Positions 11,683-60,692 of a stretch of DNA of 64,000 bases are shown here, in pieces (within the stretch, counting starts at the first letter, position 1; every line of letters begins with the position of its first letter). Where the stretch lies: the NCBI RefSeq assembly GCF_016903815.1, contig NZ_CP069973.1; one strand, 5' to 3'. Under the pieces are notes generated by a model. That model had not been told where the DNA came from, searched no databases, and saw nothing but the letters and a program-made list of their open reading frames with translations. Source of the stretch: Escherichia coli. GTDB taxonomy: Bacteria > Pseudomonadota > Gammaproteobacteria > Enterobacterales > Enterobacteriaceae. Made by a program: the position numbers and the translations under genes.

Positions 11683-11733
11683 TAATCTCTATGCTCCGGC
11701 TGAAGGGATGTTTTTGCCGGACACAAAGGATAA

Positions 11734-11749
11734 GCGGAAACGTTTTCCT
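11734..11749. promoter_or_regulatory. Candidate PurR operator upstream of pyrC
   Basis: agcGGAAACGTTTTCCt, with the palindromic AAACGTTT core of PurR boxes; pyrC is a known PurR target. Confidence 0.5.
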
Positions 11750-11787
11750 TTGCACGAAAAATAAAGGGCGCGAATGCGCCCTCGTGA

Positions 11788-12348
11788 TTAATCAGTAAAC
11801 GGAATGACAATTTCGCCTGGCTTCACTTCAATGCCTTTCGCCAGTTTCTTCGCCATTGCTTCGCCCTGGCTGCCATCTTCGCGCAGGACGTAAGCAGGTT
11901 GCTGGTTAAAGTAATTGCGTAATGCCTGGTTCAAATAGGGAAGCAACGTTTGCATCACCGTTTGCATTTTTTCCGGTTGTACCGTCGCATCGACCACTTC
12001 CATCTCTTTCAGGAAGATCGCGCCTTTTTCTTTATCAAACACGGGTAGCGCTTTCAGCTTCAGTTTCATGGTCGCTTTCTGGCTACCGAACAGGGAGTTC
12101 ATGTCCAGATTGGCGTCTCCGGTTAGGGTAACCTTATTCGGCTCTTCGCGACCAATTTGGCTGGTCAGGTTTGTCAGAACAATATGGGCGTCAGCCACGC
12201 CGGGTAAACCGATATCTTTTGAGAAATTATTATGTTTCGCAAGCGACTGGTTAATTTCTTGTTCGGTGATGGTGTATTGGGTGAGTTGATTACAGCCAAC
12301 GAGCAGGCCACTGACGATCAATGCAGCGGCAAATAAAAACTTGTTCAT
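11788..12348 (-). CDS. yceB: Lipoprotein YceB
   Basis: 186-aa protein from MNKFLFAAALIVSGLLVGC (lipobox); the long upstream extension in the ORF track overlaps grxB and is judged spurious. Confidence 0.85.
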   Translation of the reverse strand: MNKFLFAAALIVSGLLVGCNQLTQYTITEQEINQSLAKHNNFSKDIGLPGVADAHIVLTNLTSQIGREEPNKVTLTGDANLDMNSLFGSQKATMKLKLKALPVFDKEKGAIFLKEMEVVDATVQPEKMQTVMQTLLPYLNQALRNYFNQQPAYVLREDGSQGEAMAKKLAKGIEVKPGEIVIPFTD

Positions 12349-18488: not shown

Positions 18489-18905
18489 TCAGATCGAAAT
18501 CTTTTTACCGCCGCGATGGGTTGTTGAGGTCTGACCGTTCGCTCCATATAGCGTCGGTTCCTGATGCGGTTTCAACATTTCCAGCGCCTGTTGATTGCGC
18601 TCAATCTGTCCTTCCAGTAACCAGCCGTTATGTTGATTCATTTGGCGTAGTTGCTGCGTTTTCACAGTAATTTCCTGCCAGCGTTGACTAATATCAACGC
18701 TATTTGCTGCATTGGGTTCTTTCCTGCGTAACTGTTCGAGGTAATCCAGCGTCGCCAGCAGAGAGCTTTTTTGTTCTGTAATCCATTGCAACTGACTGCC
18801 GTTGATCTGCCCCATAGAGAGATGTTGCTGCTCTTGATCCATTACCGTTTTGAGATCGTTAAGCACAGCGGACATCTGGTCGAGGATCTCTGCAAGACGC
18901 GTCAT
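18489..18905 (-). CDS. flgN: Flagellar export chaperone FlgN
   Basis: 138-aa protein matching FlgN; co-oriented directly downstream of flgM. Confidence 0.92.
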   Translation of the reverse strand: MTRLAEILDQMSAVLNDLKTVMDQEQQHLSMGQINGSQLQWITEQKSSLLATLDYLEQLRRKEPNAANSVDISQRWQEITVKTQQLRQMNQHNGWLLEGQIERNQQALEMLKPHQEPTLYGANGQTSTTHRGGKKISI

Positions 18906-18909
18906 ACGA

Positions 18910-19203
18910 TCAGTTACTCTGCAAGTCTTGCTGCGCTTCGTTGATCAGCGCATCGGCAATTTTGCCGGTGTCCATTTTTAGTTCACCGTTACGAATCGCC
19001 AGTTTTAACGCTTCGACACGTTCAAGATTGATATCACTGCTGCCGGGTTGCATCAGTTTTGCTTGCGCGTCGCTTAACGTCACACTGGTGCTGGTGGAGG
19101 CGGTTGTTTTTGCCGCCCGGGTGTTCGTTACCGGCGCGTCAGTGGTTTCGCGCGGTTGAACGGTGCTTACGGGCTTCAGAGGCGAAGTGCGATCAATACT
19201 CAT
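18910..19203 (-). CDS. flgM: Anti-sigma-28 factor FlgM
   Basis: 97-aa protein [25 protein letters not shown]... Confidence 0.93.
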
Positions 19204-19246
19204 TGTTTATTCCTCATTGAGGGCGCTTTTATCATGTGTTGCTTAT

Positions 19247-30117: not shown

Positions 30118-30902
<785 letters not shown>

Positions 30903-30933
30903 AAATATATCCTTCGGCTTTGCATGGATGATA

Positions 30934-30963
30934 ATTATACAGCGCATGTAACGCTAATGTCAT
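30934..30963 (-). promoter_or_regulatory. Candidate sigma-70 promoter of the antitoxin-toxin operon
   Basis: Minus strand: -35 ATGACA, 18-bp spacer, consensus -10 TATAAT; palindrome ATAATTAT overlaps the -10 and could be an autoregulatory operator. Confidence 0.45.
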
Positions 30964-34220: not shown

Positions 34221-34581
34221 CGTAACTTACTCATTATTCTTACATTGACGACTAAGCTGCGGGCAAAGTAACGCCTTTCCGGGTGTGAACCGATGGCCTC
34301 GTGTCTAGTCGCGTCGCCAACCTCACGGTTATCGTCAGCTCAAAGAGGCGCAGAGTGTCGGTTGCCCGTTTTTCATGCGGAAAAACAGCGCAATTATCAA
34401 AGAAACAGACTGGGTATTACTCTCCAGAAATATTTCCATCTACCGGTAAGGACTGCAACCCGCAGCCCGCTAACTGCCTGAAAGATCAATACGTCTTACG
34501 CCATTGCTGCGTGGATGATCGGTCGGGCAAAATGGGTTATTCCGTAAAATTTCTTGTTTTAACAAGGATGGACACGGAAAC
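34221..34581 (-). promoter_or_regulatory. rne 5' untranslated leader (autoregulatory)
   Basis: Long untranslated region upstream of the rne ATG; its extent (about 360 nt) is taken from established E. coli knowledge, not measured here. Confidence 0.55.
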
Positions 34582-35863: not shown

Positions 35864-36448
35864 CTATCCCATCAGCGGGTTTTTCCCTTCCCGACGTAAC
35901 ATCTGACACAGCGCGATTAGCGGTAAACCAACCAGCGTGTTAGGATCACGCCCCTCTAAACGCTCAAACAGCGTAATGCCAAATCCTTCACTCTTAAAGC
36001 TACCCGCGCAGTGCAGGGGATGCTCTTTACGCACGTAATTATCAATCTCCGCCTCGCTCAGGTGACGGAAATGGACGTCAAAAGGCTCCACTTCTGTTTG
36101 TAGATGCCCATTCGCCGAATTAAACAACGCCAGTCCAGTATAGAAGGTGACGATATTGCCGCTGGCTTTGCGTAATTGCAGACGGGCATTTTCTTCCGTT
36201 AACGGTTTACCGGTGATTTCGCCATCAAGAACACATACCTGGTCTGAACCAATAATTAAATGATCCGGATAACGTGACGCCAGAGATTGCGCTTTTTCTT
36301 GTGCCAGTCGAAGCACCAACTGTCGCGGTGATTCGTCGCTGCGTGGGGTTTCGTCGACCTCTGGTGCTGCACATTCAAAAGAGATTTGCAGTTTTTCCAG
36401 AAGAGCGCGACGCCAGGGCGAGGTGGAGGCTAAAATAAGTTTAGGCAT
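35864..36448 (-). CDS. yceF: Maf-like nucleotide pyrophosphatase YceF
   Basis: 194-aa protein from [20 protein letters not shown]... Confidence 0.9.
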
Positions 36449-36634
36449 ATTTTTTTCCATCAGATATAGCGTATTGATGATAGCCATTTTAAACTATGCG
36501 CTTCGTTTTGCAGGTTGATGTTCGTTATCAGCACTGAACGAAAATAAAGCAGTAACCCGCAATGTGTGCGAATTATTGGCAAAAGGCAACCACAGGCTGC
36601 CTTTTTCTTTGACTCTATGACGTTACAAAGTTAA

Positions 36635-43033: not shown

Positions 43034-43057
43034 GTTGTCATTTCCCACCCTTATAAA

Positions 43058-43080
43058 AGGTCCGCTTGCGGGCCTTTTTT
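43058..43080 (+). terminator. Rho-independent terminator of the acpP-fabF transcript
   Basis: aggtccgc-ttg-cgggcct hairpin followed by TTTTTT, 25 bp after the fabF stop. Confidence 0.7.
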
Positions 43081-43081
43081 C

Positions 43082-43794
43082 TTGTGCACAGAAAACCCCC
43101 AGCTAGGCTGGGGGTTCCGGAAAGCTTTCAGCTTTAAGCCAGTTATTAAAACCCCTTTTGATTTGTTAAAACACCTTGCGGTCTGGCAACTGCAAGTGTC
43201 AAACAAGAAATCAAAAGGGGGTCCCAATGGGGAACGAAAAGAGCTTAGCGCACACCCGATGGAACTGTAAATATCACATAGTTTTTGCGCCAAAATACCG
43301 AAGACAGGTGTTCTACAGAGAGAAGCGTAGAGCAATAGGCAGTATTTTGAGAAAGCTGTGTGAGTGGAAAAGTGTACGGATTCTGGAAGCTGAATGCTGT
43401 GCAGATCATATCCATATGCTTGTGGAGATCCCGCCCAAAATGAGCGTATCCGGCTTTATGGGATATCTGAAAGGGAAAAGCAGTCTGATGCTTTACGAGC
43501 AGTTTGGTGATTTGAAATTCAAATACAGGAACAGGGAGTTCTGGTGCAGAGGGTACTACGTCGATACGGTGGGTAAGAACACGGCGAAGATACAGGATTA
43601 CATAAAGCACCAGCTTGAAGAGGATAAAATGGGAGAGCAGTTATCGATTCCCTATCCGGGCAGCCCGTTTACGGGCCGTAAGTAACGAAGTTGGATGCAA
43701 ATGTCAGATCGTGTGCGCCTGTTAGGGCGCGGCTGGTAAGAGAGCCTTATAGGCGCATTTGAAAAACCTCCGGCTATGCCGGAGGATATTTATT
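43082..43794 (+). mobile_element. IS200 (IS200/IS605 family) insertion sequence, copy 1
   Basis: About 713 bp that is apparently identical to 59980..60692 (ORF-track translations identical on both strands); encodes an HuH Y1 transposase; left-end hairpin cccccag-ctagg-ctggggg (43096..43114) and right-end hairpin cctccggc-tat-gccggagg; boundaries set by where the two copies diverge, plus or minus a few bp. Confidence 0.9.
43227..43685 (+). CDS. tnpA: IS200 transposase TnpA (HuH Y1 family)
   Basis: 152-aa protein MGNEKSLAHTRWNCKYHIVFAPKYRR...ADHIHMLVEIP...; HxH motif and Tyr-containing C-terminal region; closely matches Salmonella IS200 TnpA from memory. Confidence 0.9.
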   Translation: MGNEKSLAHTRWNCKYHIVFAPKYRRQVFYREKRRAIGSILRKLCEWKSVRILEAECCADHIHMLVEIPPKMSVSGFMGYLKGKSSLMLYEQFGDLKFKYRNREFWCRGYYVDTVGKNTAKIQDYIKHQLEEDKMGEQLSIPYPGSPFTGRK

Positions 43795-43863
43795 AGCTTT
43801 TATTCTGACTTGTTCCGTAGTGAACATGCTGCCACACTAACAATTCTCTGATAAGGAGCCGGT

Positions 43864-44673
43864 ATGTTCTTAATTAACGGTCATAAGCAGGAATCGCTGG
43901 CAGTAAGCGATCGGGCAACGCAGTTTGGTGATGGTTGTTTTACCACCGCCAGAGTTATCGACGGTAAAGTCAGTTTGTTATCGGCGCATATCCAGCGACT
44001 ACAGGATGCTTGTCAGCGGTTGATGATTTCCTGTGACTTCTGGCCTCAGCTTGAACTAGAGATGAAAACGCTGGCAGCAGAACAGCAAAATGGTGTGCTG
44101 AAAGTGGTGATCAGTCGCGGTAGTGGCGGGCGAGGATACAGCACATTGAACAGCGGACCGGCAACGCGGATTCTCTCCGTTACGGTTTATCCCGCACATT
44201 ACGACCGTTTGCGTAACGAGGGGATGACGTTGGCGCTAAGCCCGGTGCGGCTGGGGCGCAATCCTCATCTTGCAGGTATTAAACATCTTAATCGGCTTGA
44301 GCAAGTATTGATCCGCTCTCATCTTGAGCAGACAAACGCTGATGAGGCGCTGGTCCTTGACAGCGAAGGGTGGGTTACGGAATGCTGTGCGGCTAATTTG
44401 TTCTGGCGGAAGGGCAACGTAGTTTATACGCCGCGACTGGATCAGGCAGGTGTTAACGGCATTATGCGACAATTCTGTATCCGTTTACTGGCACAATCCT
44501 CTTATCAGCTTGTCGAAGTGCAAGCCTCGCTGGAGGAGGCGTTGCAGGCAGATGAGATGGTTATTTGTAATGCGTTAATGCCAGTGATACCCGTACGTGC
44601 CTGTGGCGATGTCTCCTTTTCGTCAGCAACGTTATATGAATATTTAGCCCCACTTTGTGAGCGCCCGAATTAG
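43864..44673 (+). CDS. pabC: Aminodeoxychorismate lyase PabC
   Basis: 269-aa protein matching PabC. Confidence 0.93.
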
Positions 44674-44675
44674 TC

Positions 44676-45698
44676 ATGAAAAAAGTGTTATTGATTATCT
44701 TGTTATTGCTGGTGGTACTGGGTATCGCCGCTGGTGTGGGCGTCTGGAAGGTTCGCCATCTTGCCGACAGCAAATTGCTTATCAAAGAAGAGACGATATT
44801 TACCCTGAAGCCAGGGACCGGACGTCTGGCGCTCGGTGAACAGCTTTATGCCGATAAGATCATCAATCGCCCACGGGTTTTCCAATGGCTGCTGCGTATC
44901 GAACCGGATCTTTCTCACTTTAAAGCCGGGACTTACCGCTTTACACCGCAGATGACCGTGCGCGAGATGCTGAAATTGCTGGAAAGCGGTAAAGAAGCAC
45001 AGTTCCCTCTGCGACTGGTAGAAGGGATGCGTCTGAGCGATTACCTCAAGCAATTGCGTGAGGCCCCGTATATCAAGCACACGCTGAGCGACGATAAGTA
45101 CGCCACCGTAGCGCAGGCACTTGAACTGGAAAACCCGGAGTGGATTGAAGGTTGGTTCTGGCCAGACACCTGGATGTATACCGCCAATACCACCGATGTC
45201 GCGTTACTCAAGCGAGCGCACAAGAAAATGGTGAAAGCGGTCGATAGCGCCTGGGAAGGGCGTGCGGACGGTCTGCCCTATAAAGATAAAAACCAGCTGG
45301 TGACGATGGCATCAATTATCGAAAAAGAAACCGCCGTTGCCAGTGAACGCGATCAGGTTGCCTCGGTATTTATCAACCGGTTACGCATTGGTATGCGCCT
45401 GCAGACCGACCCGACCGTGATTTACGGGATGGGAGAGCGTTATAATGGCAAACTTTCTCGTGCAGACCTGGAAACGCCGACAGCGTATAACACCTATACC
45501 ATTACCGGTTTGCCGCCAGGTGCAATAGCTACGCCGGGGGCGGATTCGCTGAAGGCTGCTGCGCATCCGGCAAAAACGCCGTATCTCTATTTTGTGGCCG
45601 ATGGTAAAGGTGGTCACACGTTTAATACCAATCTTGCCAGTCATAACAAGTCTGTGCAGGATTATCTGAAAGTGCTTAAGGAAAAAAATGCGCAGTAA
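44676..45698 (+). CDS. mltG: Endolytic murein transglycosylase MltG (YceG)
   Basis: 340-aa protein with N-terminal membrane anchor, matching YceG/MltG. Confidence 0.93.
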
Positions 45699-46329
45699 GT
45701 ATATCGTCATTGAGGGGCTGGAAGGCGCAGGCAAAACTACCGCGCGTAACGTGGTGGTTGAGACGCTCGAGCAACTGGGTATCCGCGACATGGTTTTCAC
45801 TCGGGAACCTGGCGGTACGCAACTTGCCGAAAAGTTAAGAAGCCTGGTACTGGATATCAAATCGGTAGGCGATGAAGTCATTACCGATAAAGCCGAAGTT
45901 CTGATGTTTTATGCCGCGCGCGTTCAACTGGTAGAAACGGTCATCAAACCTGCGCTGGCTAACGGCACCTGGGTGATTGGCGATCGCCACGATCTCTCCA
46001 CTCAGGCGTATCAGGGCGGCGGACGTGGTATTGACCAACATATGCTGGCAACACTGCGTGATGCTGTTCTCGGGGATTTTCGCCCCGACTTAACGCTCTA
46101 TCTCGATGTTACCCCGGAAGTTGGCTTAAAACGCGCGCGTGCGCGCGGCGAGCTGGATCGTATTGAGCAAGAGTCTTTCGATTTCTTTAATCGCACCCGC
46201 GCCCGCTATCTGGAACTGGCAGCACAAGATAAAAGCATTCATACCATTGATGCCACCCAGCCGCTGGAGTCCGTGATGGATGCAATCCGCACTACCGTGA
46301 CCAATTGGGTGAAGGAGTTGGACGCATGA
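45688..46329 (+). CDS. tmk: Thymidylate kinase
   Basis: 213-aa protein with P-loop GLEGAGKTT. Confidence 0.95.
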
Positions 46330-47330
46330 GATGGTATCCATGGTTACGACCTGATTTCGAAAAACTGGTAGCCAGCTATCAGGCCGGAAGAGGTCACCAT
46401 GCGCTGCTCATTCAGGCGTTACCGGGCATGGGCGATGATGCTTTAATCTACGCCCTGAGCCGTTATTTACTCTGCCAACAACCGCAGGGCCACAAAAGTT
46501 GCGGTCACTGTCGTGGATGTCAGTTGATGCAGGCTGGCACGCATCCCGATTATTACACCCTGGCTCCCGAAAAAGGGAAAAATACGCTGGGCATTGATGC
46601 GGTACGTGAGGTCACTGAAAAACTGAATGAGCACGCCCGCTTAGGTGGTGCGAAAGTTGTCTGGGTAACCGATGCTGCCTTACTGACCGACGCCGCGGCT
46701 AACGCATTGCTGAAAACGCTTGAAGAGCCACCAGCAGAAACCTGGTTTTTCCTGGCTACCCGCGAGCCTGAACGTTTACTGGCAACATTACGTAGTCGTT
46801 GTCGGTTACATTACCTTGCGCCGCCGCCGGAACAGTACGCCGTGACCTGGCTTTCACGCGAAGTGACAATGTCACAGGATGCATTACTTGCCGCATTGCG
46901 CTTAAGCGCCGGTTCGCCTGGCGCGGCACTGGCGTTGTTTCAGGGAGATAACTGGCAGGCTCGTGAAACATTGTGTCAGGCGTTGGCATATAGCGTGCCA
47001 TCGGGCGACTGGTATTCGCTGCTAGCGGCCCTTAATCATGAACAAGCTCCGGCGCGTTTACACTGGCTGGCAACGTTGCTGATGGATGCGCTAAAACGCC
47101 ATCATGGCGCTGCGCAGGTGACCAATGTTGATGTGCCGGGACTGGTCGTCGAACTGGCAAACCATCTTTCTCCCTCGCGCCTGCAGGCTATACTGGGGGA
47201 TGTTTGCCACATTCGTGAACAGTTAATGTCTGTCACAGGCATCAACCGCGAGCTTCTCATCACCGATCTTTTACTGCGTATTGAGCATTACCTGCAACCG
47301 GGCGTTGTGCTACCGGTTCCTCATCTTTAA
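46326..47330 (+). CDS. holB: DNA polymerase III delta' subunit HolB
   Basis: 334-aa protein from [14 protein letters not shown]...; ATGA overlap with the tmk stop. Confidence 0.93.
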
Positions 47331-47340
47331 GAGAGACATC

Positions 47341-48138
47341 ATGTTTTTAGTCGACTCACACTGCCATCTCGATGGTCTGGATTATGAATCTTTGCATAAG
47401 GACGTGGATGACGTTCTGGCGAAAGCCGCCGCACGCGATGTGAAATTTTGTCTGGCAGTCGCCACAACATTACCAGGTTATTTACATATGCGGGATCTGG
47501 TAGGCGAACGTGACAACGTCGTATTTTCTTGTGGCGTGCATCCACTCAACCAGAATGATCCCTACGATGTAGAAGATTTACGCCGTCTGGCGGCAGAAGA
47601 GGGTGTTGTAGCGCTGGGTGAAACCGGTCTGGATTATTATTACACACCGGAAACTAAAGTACGTCAGCAAGAGTCCTTCATTCATCATATCCAGATTGGT
47701 CGTGAACTGAACAAGCCGGTTATCGTCCATACCCGTGACGCCCGCGCCGATACGCTGGCAATTCTGCGCGAAGAAAAAGTGACGGATTGCGGTGGCGTAC
47801 TACACTGTTTTACAGAGGACAGAGAAACGGCGGGTAAATTACTGGATCTCGGATTTTACATCTCCTTTTCCGGCATTGTGACCTTCCGTAATGCGGAGCA
47901 ACTGCGCGATGCTGCGCGTTATGTCCCCCTGGATCGGTTACTGGTAGAAACTGACTCACCTTACCTTGCACCGGTTCCGCATCGAGGAAAAGAGAATCAA
48001 CCTGCGATGGTTCGTGACGTTGCAGAATACATGGCTGTGTTGAAAGGTGTTGCCGTTGAAGAACTGGCGCAGGTAACCACCGATAACTTCGCCCGTCTGT
48101 TTCACATCGACGCTTCCCGCCTTCAATCCATCCGTTGA
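47341..48138 (+). CDS. ycfH: TatD-family metal-dependent nuclease YcfH
   Basis: 265-aa protein from [16 protein letters not shown]... Confidence 0.92.
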
Positions 48139-48312
48139 ATGAGTTTTTTTAAAGCTCGTAATTAATGGCTAAAACGAGTAAAGTTCACCGCCGAAAATTG
48201 GGCGGTGAATAACCACGTTTGAAATATTGTGACATATGTTTTGTCAAAATGTGCAACTTCTCCAATGATCTGAAGTTGAAACGTGATAGCCGTCAAACAA
48301 ATTGGCACTGAA

Positions 48313-48338
48313 TTATTTTACTCTGTGTAATAAATAAA
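48313..48338 (+). promoter_or_regulatory. Candidate Mlc operator in the ptsG promoter region
   Basis: AT-rich inverted repeat TTATTTTACTCTGTGTAATAAATAA about 100 bp upstream of the ptsG ATG; ptsG is a known Mlc target. Confidence 0.4.
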
Positions 48339-48393
48339 GGGCGCTTAGATGCCCTGTACACGGCGAGGCTCTCCCCCCTTGCCACGCGTGAGA

Positions 48394-48432
48394 ACGTAAA
48401 AAAAGCACCCATACTCAGGAGCACTCTCAATT
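48394..48432 (+). promoter_or_regulatory. ptsG 5' UTR / ribosome-binding region, the site paired by the sRNA SgrS
   Basis: aaagcacccatactcaggagcactctcaatt immediately upstream of the ptsG ATG, recalled as the SgrS pairing region. Confidence 0.5.
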
Positions 48433-49866
48433 ATGTTTAAGAATGCATTTGCTAACCTGCAAAAGGTCGGTAAATCGCTGATGCTGCCGGTATCCGTACT
48501 GCCTATCGCAGGTATTCTGCTGGGCGTCGGTTCCGCGAATTTCAGCTGGCTGCCCGCCGTTGTATCGCATGTTATGGCAGAAGCAGGCGGTTCCGTCTTT
48601 GCAAACATGCCACTGATTTTTGCGATCGGTGTCGCCCTCGGCTTTACCAATAACGATGGCGTATCCGCGCTGGCCGCAGTTGTTGCCTATGGCATCATGG
48701 TTAAAACCATGGCCGTGGTTGCGCCACTGGTACTGCATTTACCTGCTGAAGAAATCGCCTCTAAACACCTGGCGGATACTGGCGTACTCGGAGGGATTAT
48801 CTCCGGTGCGATTGCAGCGTATATGTTTAACCGTTTCTACCGTATTAAGCTGCCTGAGTATCTTGGCTTCTTTGCCGGTAAACGCTTTGTGCCGATCATT
48901 TCTGGCCTGGCTGCCATCTTTACTGGCGTTGTGCTGTCCTTCATTTGGCCGCCGATTGGTTCTGCAATCCAGACCTTCTCTCAGTGGGCTGCTTACCAGA
49001 ACCCGGTAGTTGCGTTTGGCATTTACGGTTTCATCGAACGTTGCCTGGTACCGTTTGGTCTGCACCACATCTGGAACGTACCTTTCCAGATGCAAATTGG
49101 TGAATACACCAACGCAGCAGGTCAGGTTTTCCACGGCGACATTCCGCGTTATATGGCGGGTGACCCGACTGCGGGTAAACTGTCTGGTGGCTTCCTGTTC
49201 AAAATGTACGGTCTGCCAGCTGCCGCAATTGCTATCTGGCACTCTGCTAAACCAGAAAACCGCGCGAAAGTGGGCGGTATTATGATCTCCGCGGCGCTGA
49301 CCTCGTTCCTGACCGGTATCACCGAGCCGATCGAGTTCTCCTTCATGTTCGTTGCGCCGATCCTGTACATCATCCACGCGATTCTGGCAGGCCTGGCATT
49401 CCCAATCTGTATTCTTCTGGGGATGCGTGACGGTACGTCGTTCTCGCACGGTCTGATCGACTTCATCGTTCTGTCTGGTAACAGCAGCAAACTGTGGCTG
49501 TTCCCGATCGTCGGTATCGGTTATGCGATTGTTTACTACACCATCTTCCGCGTGCTGATTAAAGCACTGGATCTGAAAACGCCGGGTCGTGAAGACGCGA
49601 CTGAAGATGCAAAAGCGACAGGTACCAGCGAAATGGCACCGGCTCTGGTTGCTGCATTTGGTGGTAAAGAAAACATTACTAACCTCGACGCATGTATTAC
49701 CCGTCTGCGCGTCAGCGTTGCTGATGTGTCTAAAGTGGATCAGGCTGGCCTGAAGAAACTGGGCGCAGCGGGCGTAGTGGTTGCTGGTTCTGGTGTTCAG
49801 GCGATTTTCGGTACTAAATCCGATAACCTGAAAACCGAGATGGATGAGTACATCCGTAACCACTAA
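48433..49866 (+). CDS. ptsG: Glucose-specific PTS enzyme IICB
   Basis: 477-aa protein with IIC membrane domain and C-terminal IIB domain. Confidence 0.97.
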
Positions 49867-49925
49867 TCCGTAAGACGTTGGGGAGACTAAGGCAGCCGGA
49901 TGGCTGCCTTTTTTACAGGTGTTAT

Positions 49926-52115
49926 TCAGAATTGATACGTGCCGGTAATGCTGAAATTACGCGGTGCGCCGTAGACGATAGAACCTTCCACGTTGGTATC
50001 GTAGGTTTTGTCGAACAGGTTATTGACGTTCCCCTGTAACGAGAAGTTTTTCGTCACCTGGTAGCGGGTGAAGAGATCCACCAGCGCGTAGCTACCTTGC
50101 TCGGCGCGGAAGGTGCCATACGGTGTCACGGTGTCGGTATACACGCGATTTTGCCAGTTAACACCACCGCCGACCGTCAACTCTGGCATGACAGGCAACC
50201 GGTAGCTGGTGAACATTTTAACCGTGGTGCGTGGCAGATTAGGATTAACGGCGTTTCCTTCGTTATCCTCTGCAATATAGCGTGTTGCGCCAAACGTCAG
50301 CTGCCAGTTGTCGGTAATTGCGCCGTTGAGTTCAAATTCCACACCTTTACTGACTGTCCCATCCACCGCTTTATAGGCGGTTTCGCCGTTGCTGCCGGGG
50401 ATAGGTGTACCGGTGGACTGAGCGACATTATCCTGCTCAATACGGAAGATGGCTAACGTGGTGATCAGACGGCTATTCATCCAGTCCGATTTCAGACCCA
50501 GCTCGTAGTTGTTACCGGTGATTGGAGCCAGATATTTGCCTGAACTGTCACGATCATTTTGCGGCTGGAAAATAGAGGTATAGCTGGCGTAGGTCGACCA
50601 GTTGTCATTGATGTCAAACACCAGACCAGCATAAGGCGTGGTGTGGTTTTTCTCCATGCTGTAAGTCAGCGTATCAACCCGCCAGTTGGTATATCGCGCG
50701 CCGAGGATCAGATGCAGCGGATCGGCAAGGGTGACACGAGTGGCAGCATATAACGATTTCATATGTGTGGTATCGTCCTGCGCCAGGCTCTGTGGTGACC
50801 AGTCGGTTTGTGGGAAATTGCCATTAAAGTTGTAGAAACTGCCAATTTCATCCGGGAAGATGTTTGCCCATGAACTGAAGTAACGATTGTTTTGTTTGCT
50901 GTAACTGCCACCAAACATTAGATTGTGCTGACGACCAAACAATTCATAACTACCGTCAGCAAACAAATCCAGCGCATCAACTTTACGTTTGCCGCTGTTC
51001 CAACCGGTGCCGCCGACATAATCAAAGCCAGGTCCATAATTACTGTATGGCCCAACCAGCATACCATCCGCTTTATTTACATAGGCATCGACATACATCA
51101 TTTTACTGTCAAATTCGACTTCGGAGTGGGTGGCATTCAGTGTCGCTTGCCAGGTATCAGCAAACCGCTGCTTGAGGGTCATAAAGACCTTGTTGATCTC
51201 TTTATCGTTATACGCCCAGTCAGGTGCGGTACTGCGTGCGCGATCGTAACTGTTGCTGCTGCCATCAGTATTCCAGCGCGGTAAACCGCCCCAGGTTGGG
51301 TTATTAACATCAATGCGCTGATATTCGTAACCGGCTGAAAGCGTCGTAAGATCGCCTAAATCAGCATCGACAATGCCGGAGAAGAAGGTCTTTTCACTGT
51401 TGTAGCGGTCCAGCCATGAGTCGTTATTCTGGTAGCCACCGACAATTCGCGCGCGGAATTTACCATCTTCGGTGAGTGGGCTTTGTAAATCCGCCACATA
51501 CCGTTCTTTGTTCCAGCTACCGTATTCCGCCGAGACATCGCCTTTAAATTCACGACTGGTCGCGTGTTTTCGAACCATATTAATTGCCGCAGATGGATTA
51601 CCCGTCCCGGTCATGAGTCCTGTCGCGCCACGCACTACTTCTACGCGTTCAAACAGTGCCATATCAGAAAGTGCGTCGCCCAGATTCCAGCGCGATTCAA
51701 AATAGGTGGGGATACCATCAACCATATAGTTATCGATCTGGAATCCGCGGGAATAATAAAGAGCACGATCGGAATCCGCCTGACTTTTGCTGATCCCCAG
51801 CGTGTTTTCCATCACTTCGCCCAGCGTTTGCAACTGCTGATCTTCCATCCGCTGCTGGCTAACAATAGTGACCGACTGAGGAATATCACGTTGAGTCATC
51901 TGCATTTTGGTTCCTGCAGAAGTAGACGTTACGCTGTAATCATTTTCGCCATCATCTGGAGCTGTGGCTGAACCCTCAACAATCACCGTTTCTTCAGTGG
52001 CTGGTGCAGCAAAAGCGGCAGAAGGTAATAGTGCCAGTACAATGCAACCGGCAAGTAGTGACGGTTTGGTGATGGCTTGATATTGATTATCCCTGTTAAA
52101 TTGTGTTGAAAGCAT
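49926..52115 (-). CDS. fhuE: TonB-dependent ferric coprogen / rhodotorulic acid receptor FhuE
   Basis: 729-aa outer-membrane receptor with signal peptide and terminal aromatic residue (…GTYQF). Confidence 0.95.
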   Translation of the reverse strand: MLSTQFNRDNQYQAITKPSLLAGCIVLALLPSAAFAAPATEETVIVEGSATAPDDGENDYSVTSTSAGTKMQMTQRDIPQSVTIVSQQRMEDQQLQTLGEVMENTLGISKSQADSDRALYYSRGFQIDNYMVDGIPTYFESRWNLGDALSDMALFERVEVVRGATGLMTGTGNPSAAINMVRKHATSREFKGDVSAEYGSWNKERYVADLQSPLTEDGKFRARIVGGYQNNDSWLDRYNSEKTFFSGIVDADLGDLTTLSAGYEYQRIDVNNPTWGGLPRWNTDGSSNSYDRARSTAPDWAYNDKEINKVFMTLKQRFADTWQATLNATHSEVEFDSKMMYVDAYVNKADGMLVGPYSNYGPGFDYVGGTGWNSGKRKVDALDLFADGSYELFGRQHNLMFGGSYSKQNNRYFSSWANIFPDEIGSFYNFNGNFPQTDWSPQSLAQDDTTHMKSLYAATRVTLADPLHLILGARYTNWRVDTLTYSMEKNHTTPYAGLVFDINDNWSTYASYTSIFQPQNDRDSSGKYLAPITGNNYELGLKSDWMNSRLITTLAIFRIEQDNVAQSTGTPIPGSNGETAYKAVDGTVSKGVEFELNGAITDNWQLTFGATRYIAEDNEGNAVNPNLPRTTVKMFTSYRLPVMPELTVGGGVNWQNRVYTDTVTPYGTFRAEQGSYALVDLFTRYQVTKNFSLQGNVNNLFDKTYDTNVEGSIVYGAPRNFSITGTYQF

Positions 52116-52448
52116 TTGAAATCTCTAGGTTTATGTTGTCGTCAGGCTCATGCCGGAGGAGGGTGATGAGCGGTTATATTTAGTGTGCGAATAATTTTGC
52201 ATGTAAATGCAAATGAGAAATATACGCATTCATATTTGACGTGTAAACCAAACAGAGAATGTCTTTTCAGCGCATTCGCAGGCAGAAATGGGAATAATGG
52301 CGATATATACGGCAGCAAAACGATTTTTTGCTTAAGAAATCGTGAGTTAAGGTTGAAAGAGCAGGTTTAACTCGACCATACTCTATACTCGCAGTGTGGC
52401 GCGGCGTAGCATGGCGCAACGCATGGCTATTTGAAAAAGGAAAATGTC

Positions 52449-52808
52449 GTGGCAGAAGAAACTATATTCAGCAAAATTATTCGTCGTGAGATCCCCTCCG
52501 ATATCGTCTACCAGGATGATCTGGTAACGGCGTTTCGCGATATTTCGCCGCAAGCGCCAACGCATATTCTGATCATTCCGAATATCCTCATTCCGACTGT
52601 GAACGACGTGTCTGCTGAGCATGAGCAGGCGCTGGGACGCATGATCACCGTAGCGGCAAAAATTGCTGAGCAAGAAGGTATTGCCGAAGATGGCTATCGT
52701 CTGATCATGAACACCAACCGCCACGGCGGACAAGAGGTTTACCACATCCATATGCACTTGTTGGGTGGCCGTCCGCTGGGACCAATGCTGGCGCATAAAG
52801 GTCTGTAA
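52449..52808 (+). CDS. hinT: Purine nucleoside phosphoramidase HinT (HIT family)
   Basis: 119-aa protein from a GTG start ([17 protein letters not shown]…) with HIHMHLL histidine-triad motif. Confidence 0.9.
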
Positions 52809-52810
52809 CG

Positions 52811-53188
52811 ATGAGAAAAGGATGCTTTGGGCTGGTGTCTCTGGCGTTGTTAGTGCTGGTGGGCTGTCGTTCACATCCGGAAATTCCGGTGAATGATGAG
52901 CAATCGCTGGTGATGGAGTCATCTTTATTGGCTGCGGGCATCAGTGCAGAAAAGCCCGTCCTTTCGACGTCTGATATTCAACCTTCAGCATCCTCAACGC
53001 TTTATAACGAAAGGCAAGAACCCGTTACCGTTCATTATCGTTTTTACTGGTATGACGCCAGAGGGCTGGAGATGCATCCTCTGGAAAGGCCACGCAGCGT
53101 TACCATTCCCGCACATTCGGCGGTAACGCTGTACGGCAGCGCCAATTTTCTGGGGGCGCACAAAGTCAGACTTTATCTATATTTGTAA
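52811..53188 (+). CDS. ycfL: Lipoprotein YcfL
   Basis: 125-aa protein with lipobox LVLVGC. Confidence 0.88.
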   Translation: MRKGCFGLVSLALLVLVGCRSHPEIPVNDEQSLVMESSLLAAGISAEKPVLSTSDIQPSASSTLYNERQEPVTVHYRFYWYDARGLEMHPLERPRSVTIPAHSAVTLYGSANFLGAHKVRLYLYL

Positions 53189-53201
53189 GGGGTGAATCTT
53201 G

Positions 53202-53823
53202 ATGACAAAAATGAGTCGCTACGCCTTGATTACCGCGCTGGCGATGTTTCTCGCCGGGTGTGTGGGGCAACGTGAACCTGCGCCGGTAGAAGAAGTGAAA
53301 CCAGCGCCGGAACAACCAGCCGAGCCACAACAGCCTGTCCCCACAGTGCCATCGGTGCCGACAATACCGCAGCAGCCAGGCCCAATTGAGCACGAAGATC
53401 AAACTGCACCGCCTGCGCCGCATATTCGCCATTATGACTGGAATGGCGCAATGCAGCCGATGGTCAGTAAGATGCTTGGGGCTGACGGCGTGACTGCGGG
53501 TAGCGTCCTGCTGGTTGATAGCGTTAACAACCGTACTAACGGTTCGCTGAATGCCGCAGAAGCGACCGAAACGCTGCGAAATGCGCTGGCTAATAACGGT
53601 AAATTTACCCTGGTTTCCGCCCAGCAGCTGTCGATGGCTAAGCAACAGTTAGGTTTGTCGCCGCAGGACAGTTTAGGCACCCGTAGTAAAGCCATAGGCA
53701 TTGCCCGCAATGTCGGCGCTCATTACGTGCTGTACTCCAGCGCCTCTGGCAACGTTAACGCTCCGACCCTACAAATGCAGCTGATGCTGGTGCAGACGGG
53801 CGAAATTATCTGGTCAGGTAAAG

Positions 53824-53843
<20 letters not shown>
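53202..53843 (+). CDS. lpoB: Penicillin-binding protein 1B activator LpoB (YcfM)
   Basis: 213-aa lipoprotein from [20 protein letters not shown]. Confidence 0.9.
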
Positions 53844-55684
<1,841 letters not shown>

Positions 55685-55706
55685 CCCTGGCTTATGTGAG
55701 GAAGCG

Positions 55707-56249
55707 ATGATTATCTATTTACACGGTTTTGACTCTAACAGTCCGGGTAACCACGAGAAAGTCTTACAATTGCAGTTTATTGACCCGGATGTACGCTTGA
55801 TAAGCTACAGTACGCGGCATCCGAAACATGATATGCAGCATCTGCTTAAAGAAGTGGACAAAATGTTGCAACTGAACGTTGACGAGCGTCCGCTAATTTG
55901 CGGCGTTGGTCTGGGCGGATACTGGGCAGAACGGATTGGTTTTCTTTGCGACATCCGCCAGGTGATCTTCAACCCTAATTTGTTCCCTTATGAGAACATG
56001 GAAGGCAAGATTGATCGCCCGGAAGAGTATGCCGATATTGCCACTAAGTGTGTGACCAACTTCCGCGAAAAGAATCGCGATCGTTGCCTGGTGATTTTGT
56101 CGCGTAATGATGAAGCGCTTAACAGCCAGCGGACATCTGAAGAGTTGCATCATTATTACGAGATTGTCTGGGACGAAGAGCAGACGCACAAATTTAAGAA
56201 TATCTCCCCGCATTTGCAGCGCATTAAAGCGTTCAAAACCCTCGGGTAA
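55707..56249 (+). CDS. ycfP: UPF0227 esterase-like protein YcfP
   Basis: 180-aa protein from [18 protein letters not shown]... Confidence 0.88.
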
Positions 56250-56260
56250 ATGCCCTCGTC

Positions 56261-56378
<118 letters not shown>

Positions 56379-56648
56379 GAACGCCCTCCATACACACCTC
56401 ACTCTATATCACTCTCACAAATTCGCTCAAATAATAAACAACAAACTCTGTTTTTTGATCTCACCCGGTAAAGTCGCCTATCTTTTCAGCAACAAAACTT
56501 GATTAACATCAATTTTGGTATGACCAATGCACCATTCATGTTATTCTCATTAGCGAAGAACATTTTCATTGCTGTAACCTGTTGTTAATTAAGAGCCATG
56601 TTAATAACCATTAATTAACAATTGGTTAATAAATTTAAGGGGGTCACG

Positions 56649-57953
56649 TTGACTACGCCATTGAAAAAAATTGTGATTGTCGGCGGCGGTGCTGGTGGGC
56701 TGGAAATGGCAACACAGCTGGGGCATAAGCTGGGACGCAAGAAAAAAGCCAAAATTACGCTGGTCGATCGTAACCACAGCCACCTGTGGAAACCGCTGCT
56801 GCACGAAGTAGCGACTGGCTCGCTTGATGAAGGCGTCGATGCGTTGAGCTATCTGGCCCATGCGCGCAATCATGGTTTCCAGTTCCAGCTGGGTTCCGTC
56901 ATTGATATTGATCGTGAAGCGAAAACAATCACTATTGCAGAACTGCGCGACGAGAAAGGTGAACTGCTGGTTCCGGAACGTAAAATCGCCTATGACACTC
57001 TGGTAATGGCGCTGGGTAGCACCTCTAACGATTTCAATACACCAGGTGTCAAAGAGAACTGCATTTTCCTCGATAACCCGCACCAGGCGCGTCGCTTCCA
57101 CCAGGAGATGCTGAATCTGTTCCTGAAATACTCCGCCAACCTGGGCGCGAATGGCAAAGTGAACATTGCGATTGTCGGTGGCGGCGCGACGGGTGTAGAA
57201 CTCTCCGCTGAATTGCACAACGCGGTCAAGCAACTGCACAGCTACGGCTATAAAGGTCTGACCAACGAAGCCCTGAACGTAACGCTGGTAGAAGCGGGCG
57301 AACGTATTTTGCCTGCATTACCGCCACGTATCTCTGCTGCGGCCCATAATGAGTTAACGAAACTTGGCGTTCGCGTGCTGACGCAAACCATGGTCACCAG
57401 TGCTGATGAAGGCGGCCTGCATACTAAAGATGGCGAATATATTGAGGCTGATCTGATGGTGTGGGCAGCCGGGATCAAAGCGCCAGACTTCCTGAAAGAT
57501 ATCGGTGGTCTTGAAACCAACCGTATCAACCAGCTGGTGGTGGAACCGACGCTGCAAACCACTCGCGATCCAGACATTTACGCTATTGGCGATTGCGCGT
57601 CATGCCCGCGTCCGGAAGGGGGCTTTGTTCCGCCGCGCGCTCAGGCTGCACACCAGATGGCAACTTGCGCAATGAACAACATTCTGGCGCAGATGAATGG
57701 TAAGCCGCTGAAAAATTATCAGTATAAAGATCACGGTTCTCTGGTATCGCTGTCGAACTTCTCCACCGTCGGTAGCCTGATGGGTAACCTGACGCGCGGC
57801 TCAATGATGATTGAAGGACGAATTGCGCGCTTTGTATACATCTCGCTATACAGAATGCATCAGATTGCGCTGCATGGTTACTTTAAAACCGGATTAATGA
57901 TGCTGGTGGGGAGTATTAACCGCGTTATCCGTCCACGTTTGAAGTTGCATTAA
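56649..57953 (+). CDS. ndh: Type II NADH:quinone oxidoreductase (NDH-2)
   Basis: 434-aa protein from a TTG start ([16 protein letters not shown]…), two FAD/NAD Rossmann motifs. Confidence 0.93.
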
Positions 57954-57963
57954 TCGGCTTGTA

Positions 57964-58054
<91 letters not shown>

Positions 58055-58179
58055 TCCTTCAGACTCCTCCGAATCCCTAAGTATTTCCAGCCATTCCCGC
58101 GCTTTTCATCTTCTGTCTGATAGCTGCTTTTCTCCTTCGCTTGCATGATTGGCATAACAGCAAAGAAGGAGGTGTTCCC

Positions 58180-58719
58180 GTGAATAAATCAATGTTGGCG
58201 GGTATGGGGATTGGTGTCGCAGCTGCGTTGGGCGTAGCGGCAGTGGCCAGTCTGAACGTGTTTGAACGTGGCCCGCAATACGCTCAGGTTGTTTCTGCAA
58301 CCCCAATCAAGGAAACGGTTAAAACACCGCGTCAGGAGTGTCGCAACGTCACAGTGACCCATCGTCGACCGGTGCAGGATGAAAATCGCATTACCGGGTC
58401 GGTGCTCGGCGCTGTTGCTGGCGGCGTGATAGGGCATCAGTTTGGCGGTGGTCGCGGTAAAGATGTCGCCACTGTTGTGGGGGCGCTGGGAGGTGGCTAT
58501 GCCGGTAACCAGATCCAGGGCTCTCTCCAGGAAAGCGATACTTACACGACTACGCAACAGCGTTGTAAAACGGTGTATGACAAGTCAGAAAAAATGCTCG
58601 GTTATGATGTGACCTATAAGATTGGCGATCAGCAGGGCAAAATCCGCATGGATCGCGATCCGGGTACGCAGATCCCGCTAGATAGTAACGGGCAACTGAT
58701 TTTGAATAACAAAGTATAA
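58180..58719 (+). CDS. ycfJ: Glycine-zipper membrane protein YcfJ
   Basis: 179-aa protein from a GTG start preceded by AAGGAGG (VNKSMLAGMGIGVAAALG…). Confidence 0.85.
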   Translation: MNKSMLAGMGIGVAAALGVAAVASLNVFERGPQYAQVVSATPIKETVKTPRQECRNVTVTHRRPVQDENRITGSVLGAVAGGVIGHQFGGGRGKDVATVVGALGGGYAGNQIQGSLQESDTYTTTQQRCKTVYDKSEKMLGYDVTYKIGDQQGKIRMDRDPGTQIPLDSNGQLILNNKV

Positions 58720-58780
58720 CAAGGCTGTACTCTGCAATTTGGCCCCTCATTCGCTCAGGCTGAGGGGCTTTTTTTGCGAC

Positions 58781-59413
58781 TTATTTCACCAGTTCGGGCC
58801 ATAAACGCAAAGTCGTTCCGGCAATCTGCATCAGTTTTTCCAGCGATGCACCTTCGCGTGCGCTGATCGACATCCCCTGAATAATACAATTAAGGAATTC
58901 AGCCAGATGCGTCACGTCACAGTGGGTCGGGATTTCCCCGCGCGCTTGTCGTTGACATAAAAACTGCTGCAAAGTGCGCTCTTGCATCGCATGGCGTGAT
59001 TTCAGCGTATTGGCGATATCTCCGGAATCCGGGGAGAGGGTGGTGCAGTTGTTGATCATAAAGCAGCCAGCCGGGGTGTCTTTGCTGGTAAAGCAGTTGG
59101 CGACGGCAGCAAAATAGTCAGCCAGCGCAGACTCCACGCTTTTCTCTTCACAAAACAGCTGTGCTTCATGCTTAGCGGCAAAACGATCGATATAGCGGTC
59201 GAGTACGGCGCGAAATAACCCCTCTTTGTTGGTAAATTCCGCGTATAGCGTGGGCGCTTTGGCTCCGGTCGCTTCGACGAGGTCCGCAAGAGAAGTCGCT
59301 TCATAACCGTGCTGCCAGAACAATTTCATGGCCTTATCAAGCGCGGCATCCCTGTCGAACACTTTTGGGCGGCCACGGCTTTTTTTTACACATTGTGTTG
59401 AGTCAGTTGCCAT
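58781..59413 (-). CDS. comR: TetR-family transcriptional repressor ComR (YcfQ)
   Basis: 210-aa protein from MATDSTQCVKKSRGRPKVFDRD... with N-terminal TetR helix-turn-helix. Confidence 0.88.
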   Translation of the reverse strand: MATDSTQCVKKSRGRPKVFDRDAALDKAMKLFWQHGYEATSLADLVEATGAKAPTLYAEFTNKEGLFRAVLDRYIDRFAAKHEAQLFCEEKSVESALADYFAAVANCFTSKDTPAGCFMINNCTTLSPDSGDIANTLKSRHAMQERTLQQFLCQRQARGEIPTHCDVTHLAEFLNCIIQGMSISAREGASLEKLMQIAGTTLRLWPELVK

Positions 59414-59653
59414 GATGCCGTTGTACCTGGTGACTGTGATTGAAAGGTTATTATAAAAATAATCACCTCCGTTCACCAGTCCACAAACCATAAAAATAAT
59501 TGCTTTCTATTTAACTGAAATTTAAAGATTTTTAAATTAATTAATGATTGTTATAAAAAATATCTTGTATGTGATCCAGATCACATCTATCATTTAGTTA
59601 TCGATCGTTAAGTAATTGTTTGCGACGTCATTCATCTGCATAAGGCCACTATT

Positions 59654-59911
59654 ATGAAAAACGTAAAAACCCTCATCGCTGCGGCGATTTTAAGCTCCAT
59701 GTCATTTGCCAGCTTTGCGGCTGTCGAAGTTCAGTCAACGCCAGAAGGCCAACAAAAAGTCGGTACTATCAGTGCTAACGCGGGGACAAATCTGGGATCG
59801 CTGGAAGAGCAGCTGGCGCAAAAAGCGGATGAGATGGGCGCAAAATCATTCCGTATTACTTCTGTAACCGGTCCAAATACCCTCCATGGAACAGCAGTAA
59901 TTTATAAATAA
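59654..59911 (+). CDS. bhsA: Multiple stress resistance protein BhsA (YcfR)
   Basis: 85-aa secreted protein with signal peptide MKNVKTLIAAAILSSMSFASFA. Confidence 0.9.
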   Translation: MKNVKTLIAAAILSSMSFASFAAVEVQSTPEGQQKVGTISANAGTNLGSLEEQLAQKADEMGAKSFRITSVTGPNTLHGTAVIYK

Positions 59912-59950
59912 GCATTAACCCTCATTAATGCCTGCTACTGCTGATTTTTT

Positions 59951-59979
59951 CCCCGCGACATGCCGTGTCGCGGGGATTT
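59951..59979. terminator. Terminator hairpin downstream of bhsA (ancestrally shared with convergent ldtC)
   Basis: ccccgcgaca-tgccg-tgtcgcgggg 10-bp stem, flanked by TTTTTT upstream and ATTTT downstream. Confidence 0.7.
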
Positions 59980-60692
59980 TTGTGCACAGAAAACCCCCAG
60001 CTAGGCTGGGGGTTCCGGAAAGCTTTCAGCTTTAAGCCAGTTATTAAAACCCCTTTTGATTTGTTAAAACACCTTGCGGTCTGGCAACTGCAAGTGTCAA
60101 ACAAGAAATCAAAAGGGGGTCCCAATGGGGAACGAAAAGAGCTTAGCGCACACCCGATGGAACTGTAAATATCACATAGTTTTTGCGCCAAAATACCGAA
60201 GACAGGTGTTCTACAGAGAGAAGCGTAGAGCAATAGGCAGTATTTTGAGAAAGCTGTGTGAGTGGAAAAGTGTACGGATTCTGGAAGCTGAATGCTGTGC
60301 AGATCATATCCATATGCTTGTGGAGATCCCGCCCAAAATGAGCGTATCCGGCTTTATGGGATATCTGAAAGGGAAAAGCAGTCTGATGCTTTACGAGCAG
60401 TTTGGTGATTTGAAATTCAAATACAGGAACAGGGAGTTCTGGTGCAGAGGGTACTACGTCGATACGGTGGGTAAGAACACGGCGAAGATACAGGATTACA
60501 TAAAGCACCAGCTTGAAGAGGATAAAATGGGAGAGCAGTTATCGATTCCCTATCCGGGCAGCCCGTTTACGGGCCGTAAGTAACGAAGTTGGATGCAAAT
60601 GTCAGATCGTGTGCGCCTGTTAGGGCGCGGCTGGTAAGAGAGCCTTATAGGCGCATTTGAAAAACCTCCGGCTATGCCGGAGGATATTTATT
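59980..60692 (+). mobile_element. IS200 (IS200/IS605 family) insertion sequence, copy 2
   Basis: Apparently identical to copy 1, offset 16,898 bp, same orientation; left end abuts the bhsA terminator T-tract and right end lies 12 bp from the ldtC stop. Confidence 0.9.
60125..60583 (+). CDS. tnpA: IS200 transposase TnpA (HuH Y1 family), copy 2
   Basis: Protein identical to the copy 1 TnpA. Confidence 0.9.
   Translation: MGNEKSLAHTRWNCKYHIVFAPKYRRQVFYREKRRAIGSILRKLCEWKSVRILEAECCADHIHMLVEIPPKMSVSGFMGYLKGKSSLMLYEQFGDLKFKYRNREFWCRGYYVDTVGKNTAKIQDYIKHQLEEDKMGEQLSIPYPGSPFTGRK

Follow-up and report, generated by a model that had tools for sequence, protein, structure and literature searches.

Two identical, co-oriented IS200C copies at terminator T-tracts in an Escherichia coli ST405 chromosome

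Two IS200C insertions in direct orientation

A stretch of 64,000 nucleotides of Escherichia coli contig NZ_CP069973.1 (assembly GCF_016903815.1), here called the window, carries two copies of IS200C, an insertion sequence (IS) of the IS200 group of the IS200/IS605 family. Copy 1 (43082-43794, + strand) lies in the fabF-pabC intergenic region, and copy 2 (59980-60692, + strand) between the convergent genes bhsA and ldtC. Our analysis indicates that these are two separate insertions into a chromosome of sequence type 405 (ST405), each at the T-tract of a terminator and on the strand of the terminated gene, that the fabF copy is the older of the two, and that their common orientation was set by targeting. 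We put the probability of this reading at about 0.93.

Pairwise comparison of the two copies gave 713 identical bases out of 713 on the same strand, in agreement with a preliminary description of the region that had reported identical copies in direct orientation. The match breaks off precisely at both borders, and in a repeat search the pair was the sole long repeat within the window. The start-to-start distance of the copies is 16,898 bp, and the interval that they bracket (43795-59979) is 16,185 bp long.

The exact limits of the insertions were obtained by comparison with empty sites, using K-12 as the reference for site 1 and the ST405 strain AR_0067 for site 2. Both window sites are empty in K-12 MG1655, while AR_0067 carries only copy 1. 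At site 1, the empty sequence reads CTTTTTTCTTAGC, and the filled sequence reads CTTTTTTCTT, followed by the core (GTGCAC...ATATTTA) and by TTAGC. At site 2, the empty sequence is GGGGA-T8-ATCC, and the window has T5, the core and another T5. The thiK site of strain PEC1013 shows a like pattern, so that all three filled-versus-empty comparisons gave a 709-bp core (43084-43792 in copy 1) plus TT. Because the net insert is 711 bp per site, two of the 713 identical bases represent T-rich flanks that match by chance. As judged from the sequence, the TT may be either an end of the IS, inserted with no duplication, or a 2-bp duplication of the T-tract.

Insertion at Rho-independent terminators

Both copies directly follow terminator hairpins. 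The hairpin of the fabF Rho-independent terminator occupies positions 43055-43078 on the + strand, and copy 1 adjoins its T-tract (TTTTTTCTT immediately before GTGCAC); from the copy to the downstream pabC start, the distance is 69 bp. Copy 2 adjoins the T-tract of the bhsA terminator, the hairpin of which (59950-59976, + strand) forms the 3' end of a small RNA (sRNA) annotated as bhsB in K-12; on its other side, 12 bp separate the copy from the stop codon of ldtC. Each window copy is on the strand of its upstream gene, fabF for copy 1 and bhsA for copy 2.

Additional copies in related loci follow the same pattern. A hairpin with T5 within the 5' end of thiK (53850-53879, + strand) is empty in the window. 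In PEC1013, an ST405 strain, the site (locus 11590-12298) holds a third co-oriented IS200C, which differs from the window IS at 4 positions and truncates the 5' end of thiK, a gene annotated there as a pseudogene. Strain Ch1, which does not belong to ST405, has an independent IS200C between ycfJ and comR that follows the ycfJ terminator (locus 18507-19215), in the same orientation and with 0 mismatches to the window core. Both extra copies are likewise preceded by a hairpin and a T-run.

For a broader view, species-representative genomes were searched for the exact 27-mer of the left-end hairpin of the element, which matched more than 120 contigs. Other genomes supplied 114 unique left flanks. 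At least five of the last 8 nt before the IS were T in 108 of these, and 81 of the 108 also carried a perfect, GC-rich hairpin that was 5 bp or longer and ended no more than 9 nt away. The combination of hairpin and T-tract was found at 0.15% of random positions. In the same loci, 2.9% of the ends of T-rich tracts were preceded by such a hairpin, so that the T-run alone does not account for the association of the hairpin with insertion. In most of the other flanks the hairpins were visibly imperfect; the perfect-hairpin criterion misses such stems, the fabF terminator among them. An earlier and stricter criterion, which required a perfect or G-T stem and at least five T among the 8 nt that follow it, selected 64 of the 114 flanks, a low count because the 8 nt reached into the IS sequence and because many stems are imperfect.

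The association was also present in the E. coli loci for which gene annotation was inspected. A hairpin and a T-run preceded the IS in all ten further loci with identical TnpA, and a co-oriented gene ended directly upstream in nine of them. All 15 gene-annotated insertions, both window copies included, were co-oriented with the upstream gene.

A literature search for explicit mention of terminator targeting by IS200 found only a 2025-26 preprint, according to which terminator-like sequences are the most over-represented sequences upstream of IS200/IS605 elements (bioRxiv 10.1101/2025.07.22.666184). The association as such has thus been noted before, and only the mechanism that we propose, with its consequences, would be new. 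IS200C may recognise the terminator as a structure: a GC-rich hairpin with its T-run in the single-stranded lagging-strand template would constitute the target, and the T-run would pair with the AAAA directly 5' of the left-end hairpin. The proposed pairing is modelled on the rule by which guide and cleavage site correspond in IS608. We offer this mechanism tentatively, at somewhat below even odds.

Orientation of the copies

The direct orientation of the copies can be understood from the same target choice. The GC skew of the window is +0.036 overall and positive in all eight 8-kb bins, which identifies the + strand as the lagging-strand template. The sense strand of tnpA is the + strand, and fabF and bhsA are both + strand genes. 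In the IS200/IS605 family, orientation tracks the direction of replication, with insertion into the lagging-strand template (PMC5371812). Whether the strand of the terminator or the lagging strand is decisive, both copies should therefore point alike, and their direct orientation is expected from the target choice of the family rather than a coincidence. In genome OZ039874, five of five copies among those listed were oriented as predicted if, as we infer, the dnaA side of the origin is where this record begins.

We propose the following sequence of events. IS200C would transpose as a single strand ("peel and paste") and enter the chromosome where the T-tract of an intrinsic terminator ends, on the same strand as the gene that this terminator serves. 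Since fabF and bhsA are both on the + strand, which would be the lagging-strand template according to GC skew, the copies would come to lie co-oriented. The fabF-pabC insertion would have occurred first, and the bhsA-ldtC insertion later, inside ST405.

Distribution and age of the insertions

The distribution of the element was analyzed in 5,426 complete E. coli genomes. IS200C-like sequence was found in 3,097 of them; per genome with a match, the number of matching places had a median of 1 and reached 35 at most. Among the matches listed, ST405-type chromosomes had 18-26 IS200C places, compared with a published mean of 2.9 IS200 copies per E. coli genome (PMC4513863). The genomes that match the flanks (PEC1013, KY1497, Z1002 and WCHEC4533) are ST405. 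The window is therefore from E. coli ST405, a lineage in which IS200C has expanded to about 18-26 copies; this bears out the earlier statement that the strain is not K-12, as do the two empty sites of MG1655.

Of the 5,426 genomes, 219 carried the fabF-pabC insertion, which occurs in two or more haplotypes, and 95 carried the bhsA-ldtC insertion. Strains 7/2, PEC1013 and ECOCN22 carry both copies, and AR_0067 the fabF copy only. Among the matches listed, all comparable bhsA-ldtC records recur in the fabF-pabC list. The bhsA-ldtC insertion appears to be nested within the ST405 carriers of the fabF-pabC insertion, as judged from the overlap of 40 of the 95 and 40 of the 219 genomes and from four annotated regions. 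We conclude that the two insertions differ in age, the fabF-pabC insertion being older and the bhsA-ldtC insertion a later event within ST405.

The second fabF-pabC haplotype occurs in at least 30 genomes (for example 118UI and OZ039874) and differs by five mismatches in the IS and by other single-nucleotide polymorphisms in the flanks. In records of this haplotype, IS200C occupies 4-10 places each, and the copy at bhsA is absent.

The same data bear on the idea that one of the copies is an assembly artefact, a misplaced or collapsed repeat. Beyond the general risk that repeats pose to assembly, nothing speaks for it. The left and right junctions of both copies recur base for base in at least 95 independently assembled complete genomes, and K-12 and AR_0067 provide matching empty sites. 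The preliminary description had named divergence between the copies and an assembly artefact as findings that would overturn it; we found neither, given the 713 of 713 identical bases and the junctions in 219 and 95 genomes. The chance that a copy is artefactual is negligible in our estimate, and this explanation was rejected.

The identity of the copies had also been taken as a sign of recent transposition, a conclusion that did not hold. Identity alone does not date the copies, because the same core occurs at many loci, in several lineages and on plasmids. The 709-bp core is found with 0 mismatches after ycfJ in Ch1, at a TonB-dependent receptor/GntR locus, and on plasmids. IS200 paralogs inside one genome are typically 100% identical (PMC5435999), and IS200 transposes very rarely in the laboratory (PMC4513863).

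It might still be supposed that one copy gave rise to the other by transposition very recently. The perfect identity of all 713 bases would fit, as would the activity of IS200C in ST405, where the strain-specific thiK copy of PEC1013, inside the interval, indicates that the element is still mobile. With the identical core present elsewhere, however, either copy could stem from any of about 20 identical donors, and complete identity is the usual state of IS200 paralogs. Both insertions are moreover fixed in clades that have been sampled on several continents, from humans, dogs, a cat and a wild bird, and their presence in 219 versus 95 genomes shows that they are neither recent at the scale of strains nor simultaneous. 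We therefore consider a direct and recent descent of one copy from the other unlikely. The four differences of the PEC1013 thiK copy also show that ST405 holds more than one IS200C variant.

Several points weigh against two terminator-targeted insertions of different age as set out above. The terminator association could partly reflect selection, post-terminator insertions being harmless, instead of pure target choice. Co-orientation with replication is based on the two window copies and on five copies in a single genome, the latter by way of the inferred record start. Nestedness is based on the overlap of the lists and on four annotated regions. Finally, the second fabF haplotype may either go back to one old insertion common to both haplotypes or stem from a separate insertion at this terminator.

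The exact 27-nt sequence of the left-end hairpin was also observed in distant taxa, namely in Oxalobacter, Mailhella/Desulfovibrio and Peptococcaceae metagenome-assembled genomes and in Vibrio ruber, Brenneria, Serratia, Citrobacter, Edwardsiella and Xenorhabdus. Contig ends hold many of these matches. The distribution suggests wide horizontal spread, although binning errors are possible in the metagenome-assembled genomes.

Anatomy of the element

Sequence comparisons identify both copies as complete IS200C elements. The name is the product label of RefSeq/PGAP, which in every matching genome reads "IS200/IS605-like element IS200C family transposase" (WP_000526135.1). TnpA, a Y1 HUH transposase of 152 amino acids (aa), is encoded at 43227-43685 in copy 1 and, identically, at 60125-60583 in copy 2, both on the + strand. 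It matches the NCBIfam equivalog NF033573 (transpos_IS200) with 147.7 bits (cutoff 55, 1.9e-43) and Pfam PF01797 (Y1_Tnp) with 4.4e-38 across 119 of 121 model positions. Structural relatives in the Protein Data Bank are 2ec2, 2f4f, ISHp608 (2a6m, 3.9e-19) and ISDra2 (2xm3, 1.9e-16). The HUH motif is H61-I-H63, and Tyr110/111 lie inside the sequence RGYYVDT. The assignment to IS200 in the preliminary description is shared by the RefSeq product name, NCBIfam, Pfam and the Rfam family STnc490. Within the element, RefSeq annotates tnpA alone, without tnpB.

The repeat search of the window found no terminal inverted repeats in the element; instead, subterminal hairpins are present at both ends. The left-end hairpin of copy 1 (AACCCCCAGCTAGGCTGGGGGTT, 43094-43116, + strand) was identified by folding and is found at the equivalent positions of copy 2. 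The right-end hairpin (CCTCCGGCTATGCCGGAGG; 43767-43785 in copy 1 and 60665-60683 in copy 2, + strand) is GC-rich and terminator-like on both strands. The hairpin folds had z-scores of -3.2 to -5.9. The 5' untranslated region (5'UTR) of tnpA folds into the left-end hairpin and a long stem that buries the Shine-Dalgarno sequence (z = -4.7). The region upstream of tnpA is covered by full-length matches to STnc490 (RF01405) at 43094-43217 in copy 1 (146.1 bits, gathering score 56) and at 59992-60115 in copy 2 (146 bits), both on the + strand.

According to the literature, the left-end hairpin of IS200 (nt 12-34) is a bidirectional terminator, the 5'UTR forms a stem-loop (nt 69-138), and the element encodes the antisense RNA art200/STnc490 (PMC4513863). 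The anatomy of the window element agrees with this published layout of hairpin, 5'UTR stem-loop and art200/STnc490 region. Published descriptions place art200/STnc490 antisense to the 5'UTR of tnpA, whereas the Rfam model hits the + strand, which is sense to tnpA. The model and the sRNA may not share a strand.

The bracketed interval and recombination between the copies

The interval between the copies is core genome and runs from pabC to bhsA. In the RefSeq annotation of strain 7/2, it contains pabC, yceG/mltG, tmk, holB, ycfH, ptsG, fhuE, hinT, ycfL, lpoB, thiK, nagZ, ycfP, ndh, ycfJ, comR and bhsA, which matches the gene list that had been given in the preliminary description. Strain 7/2 is nearly identical to the window, with one mismatch in the 16,185 bp; AR_0067 likewise has one. 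Relative to K-12, the interval is collinear, in its native position and 98.4% identical.

Two co-oriented IS copies that flank a segment might be expected of a composite transposon, in which both copies and the interval would move as a unit. Against this, the interval is core genome in K-12 order and position with 98.4% identity, and the outer flanks, fabF and ldtC, are its ordinary neighbours. The copies were also acquired at different times, and the excision of a 17.6-kb single strand with essential genes is implausible for the IS200/IS605 family. The native, K-12-syntenic interval and the different ages of the copies led us to reject a composite transposon, which we regard as extremely improbable.

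RecA-dependent duplication between the copies is plausible by analogy. In unequal sister-chromatid exchange, the 0.7-kb direct repeats could in principle give rise to an unstable tandem duplication of 16.9 kb, or to a deletion that would presumably be lethal. In Salmonella, direct-order IS200 copies reportedly serve as portable homology for RecA-dependent tandem duplication, as Haack and Roth are said to have shown genetically in 1995.

Synthetic queries of the recombinant junctions were compared with the 5,426 complete genomes at a coverage of at least 80%. The bhsA-IS200-pabC junction of a tandem duplication (1,513-bp query) was found in none of the 5,426, including the 95 two-copy genomes, and neither was the fabF-IS200-ldtC junction of a deletion. 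These zeros concern assembled genomes, and assemblies cannot reveal duplications in subpopulations. Unstable duplications in subpopulations are the form to be expected and are compatible with zero assembled junctions. The genes tmk and holB are essential, as known from E. coli knockout collections, and the missing deletion junction fits this essentiality.

A stronger claim would be that the pair works as an amplification cassette, with subpopulations that carry the 16.9-kb ptsG-fhuE-ndh unit in tandem under selection. Direct repeats of 0.7 kb are adequate substrates for RecA, and the Salmonella duplications mentioned above would be a precedent. IS-flanked amplification is a common route of adaptation (PMC13423834). 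On the other side stand the absence of the bhsA-IS200-pabC junction from all 5,426 complete genomes and a genome-wide survey of S. Typhimurium LT2, in which no spontaneous rearrangement junctions were seen near the six IS200 copies (PMC3411829). Extra dosage of the interval genes is linked to no known ST405 trait. Both copies are also present in strain DA33137; the gene amplification for which it is known concerns a plasmid and not the pabC-bhsA region (PMC10940297). On balance, an amplification cassette in actual use seems improbable to us.

Other features of the window

Between flgL and rne, an open reading frame (ORF) for a GNAT-family acetyltransferase (169 aa) overlaps an ORF of 112 aa (30118-30947, - strand). 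The pair looks like a type II toxin-antitoxin system; at the same position, strain 118UI has an annotated GNAT protein plus a DUF1778 protein. Ordinary Rfam matches in the window were the rne 5'UTR element (34245-34581, - strand), SraB (36442-36610, + strand), the PyrC leader (11683-11732, - strand) and ES036 (2510-2552, - strand).

Discussion

The element, the clone and the mode of insertion were already known, and the two copies matter little as a discovery. They have some practical meaning for ST405, a known high-risk clone of which about 1,800 genomes exist (PMC13098264). The two insertions are lineage markers that could subdivide ST405, and the high IS200C load explains breaks of ST405 short-read assemblies at these points. 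The pair could also support a transient duplication of the ptsG, fhuE and ndh block.

If terminators are recognised as proposed, the terminators of the host would set the position and orientation of every copy, and copies in the same replichore would be direct repeats by construction. In a high-copy lineage such as ST405, co-oriented repeats would then be scattered over the chromosome and promote duplications inside one replichore, and some insertions would trim the U-tails of terminators and of sRNAs from 3' untranslated regions. The rule of a hairpin plus T-tract is the one aspect that is possibly worth a biochemical test. At 59977-59983, the bhsA/bhsB T-tract, which has eight T in the empty site of AR_0067, retains five T before GTGCAC. 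One may speculate that the shortened T-tract could alter termination or the binding of the bhsB sRNA to Hfq.

The closest known systems are IS200 of Salmonella enterica and IS200C of E. coli, which share the lone tnpA with its Y1 HUH transposase, the length of about 0.7 kb, the lack of terminal inverted repeats and the identical paralogs. The element in the window does not differ from them; what stands out for E. coli is that ST405 holds so many copies, about 18-26. The Salmonella duplications between IS200 copies were shown genetically, in contrast to the zero duplication or deletion junctions in the assemblies analyzed here.

A second relative is IS1541 of Yersinia pestis and Y. pseudotuberculosis, like IS200C in ST405 a high-copy element, in another host and with a variant sequence. 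Many of its copies reportedly lie just 3' of genes, beside stem-loops that resemble Rho-independent terminators and that Odaert and colleagues are said to have proposed as hot spots in 1998. A copy of IS1541 lies between pheL and pheA in Yersinia (PMC3082878). Compared with the work on IS1541, the present sample is much larger (114 plus 15 sites) and includes a control for the contribution of the hairpin beyond the T-tract.

IS608 and ISDra2, the models of single-strand "peel and paste" transposition in the family, share with IS200C a homologous TnpA and subterminal hairpins. They insert 3' of a short target with no conventional target duplication, which may also hold for IS200C, and their orientation is tied to the lagging-strand template (PMC5371812), as that of IS200C probably is. 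Both carry tnpB and have a tetra- or pentanucleotide target (TTAC and TTGAT, respectively). IS200C differs from them in its lack of tnpB and in its apparent target, a T-run that follows a hairpin.

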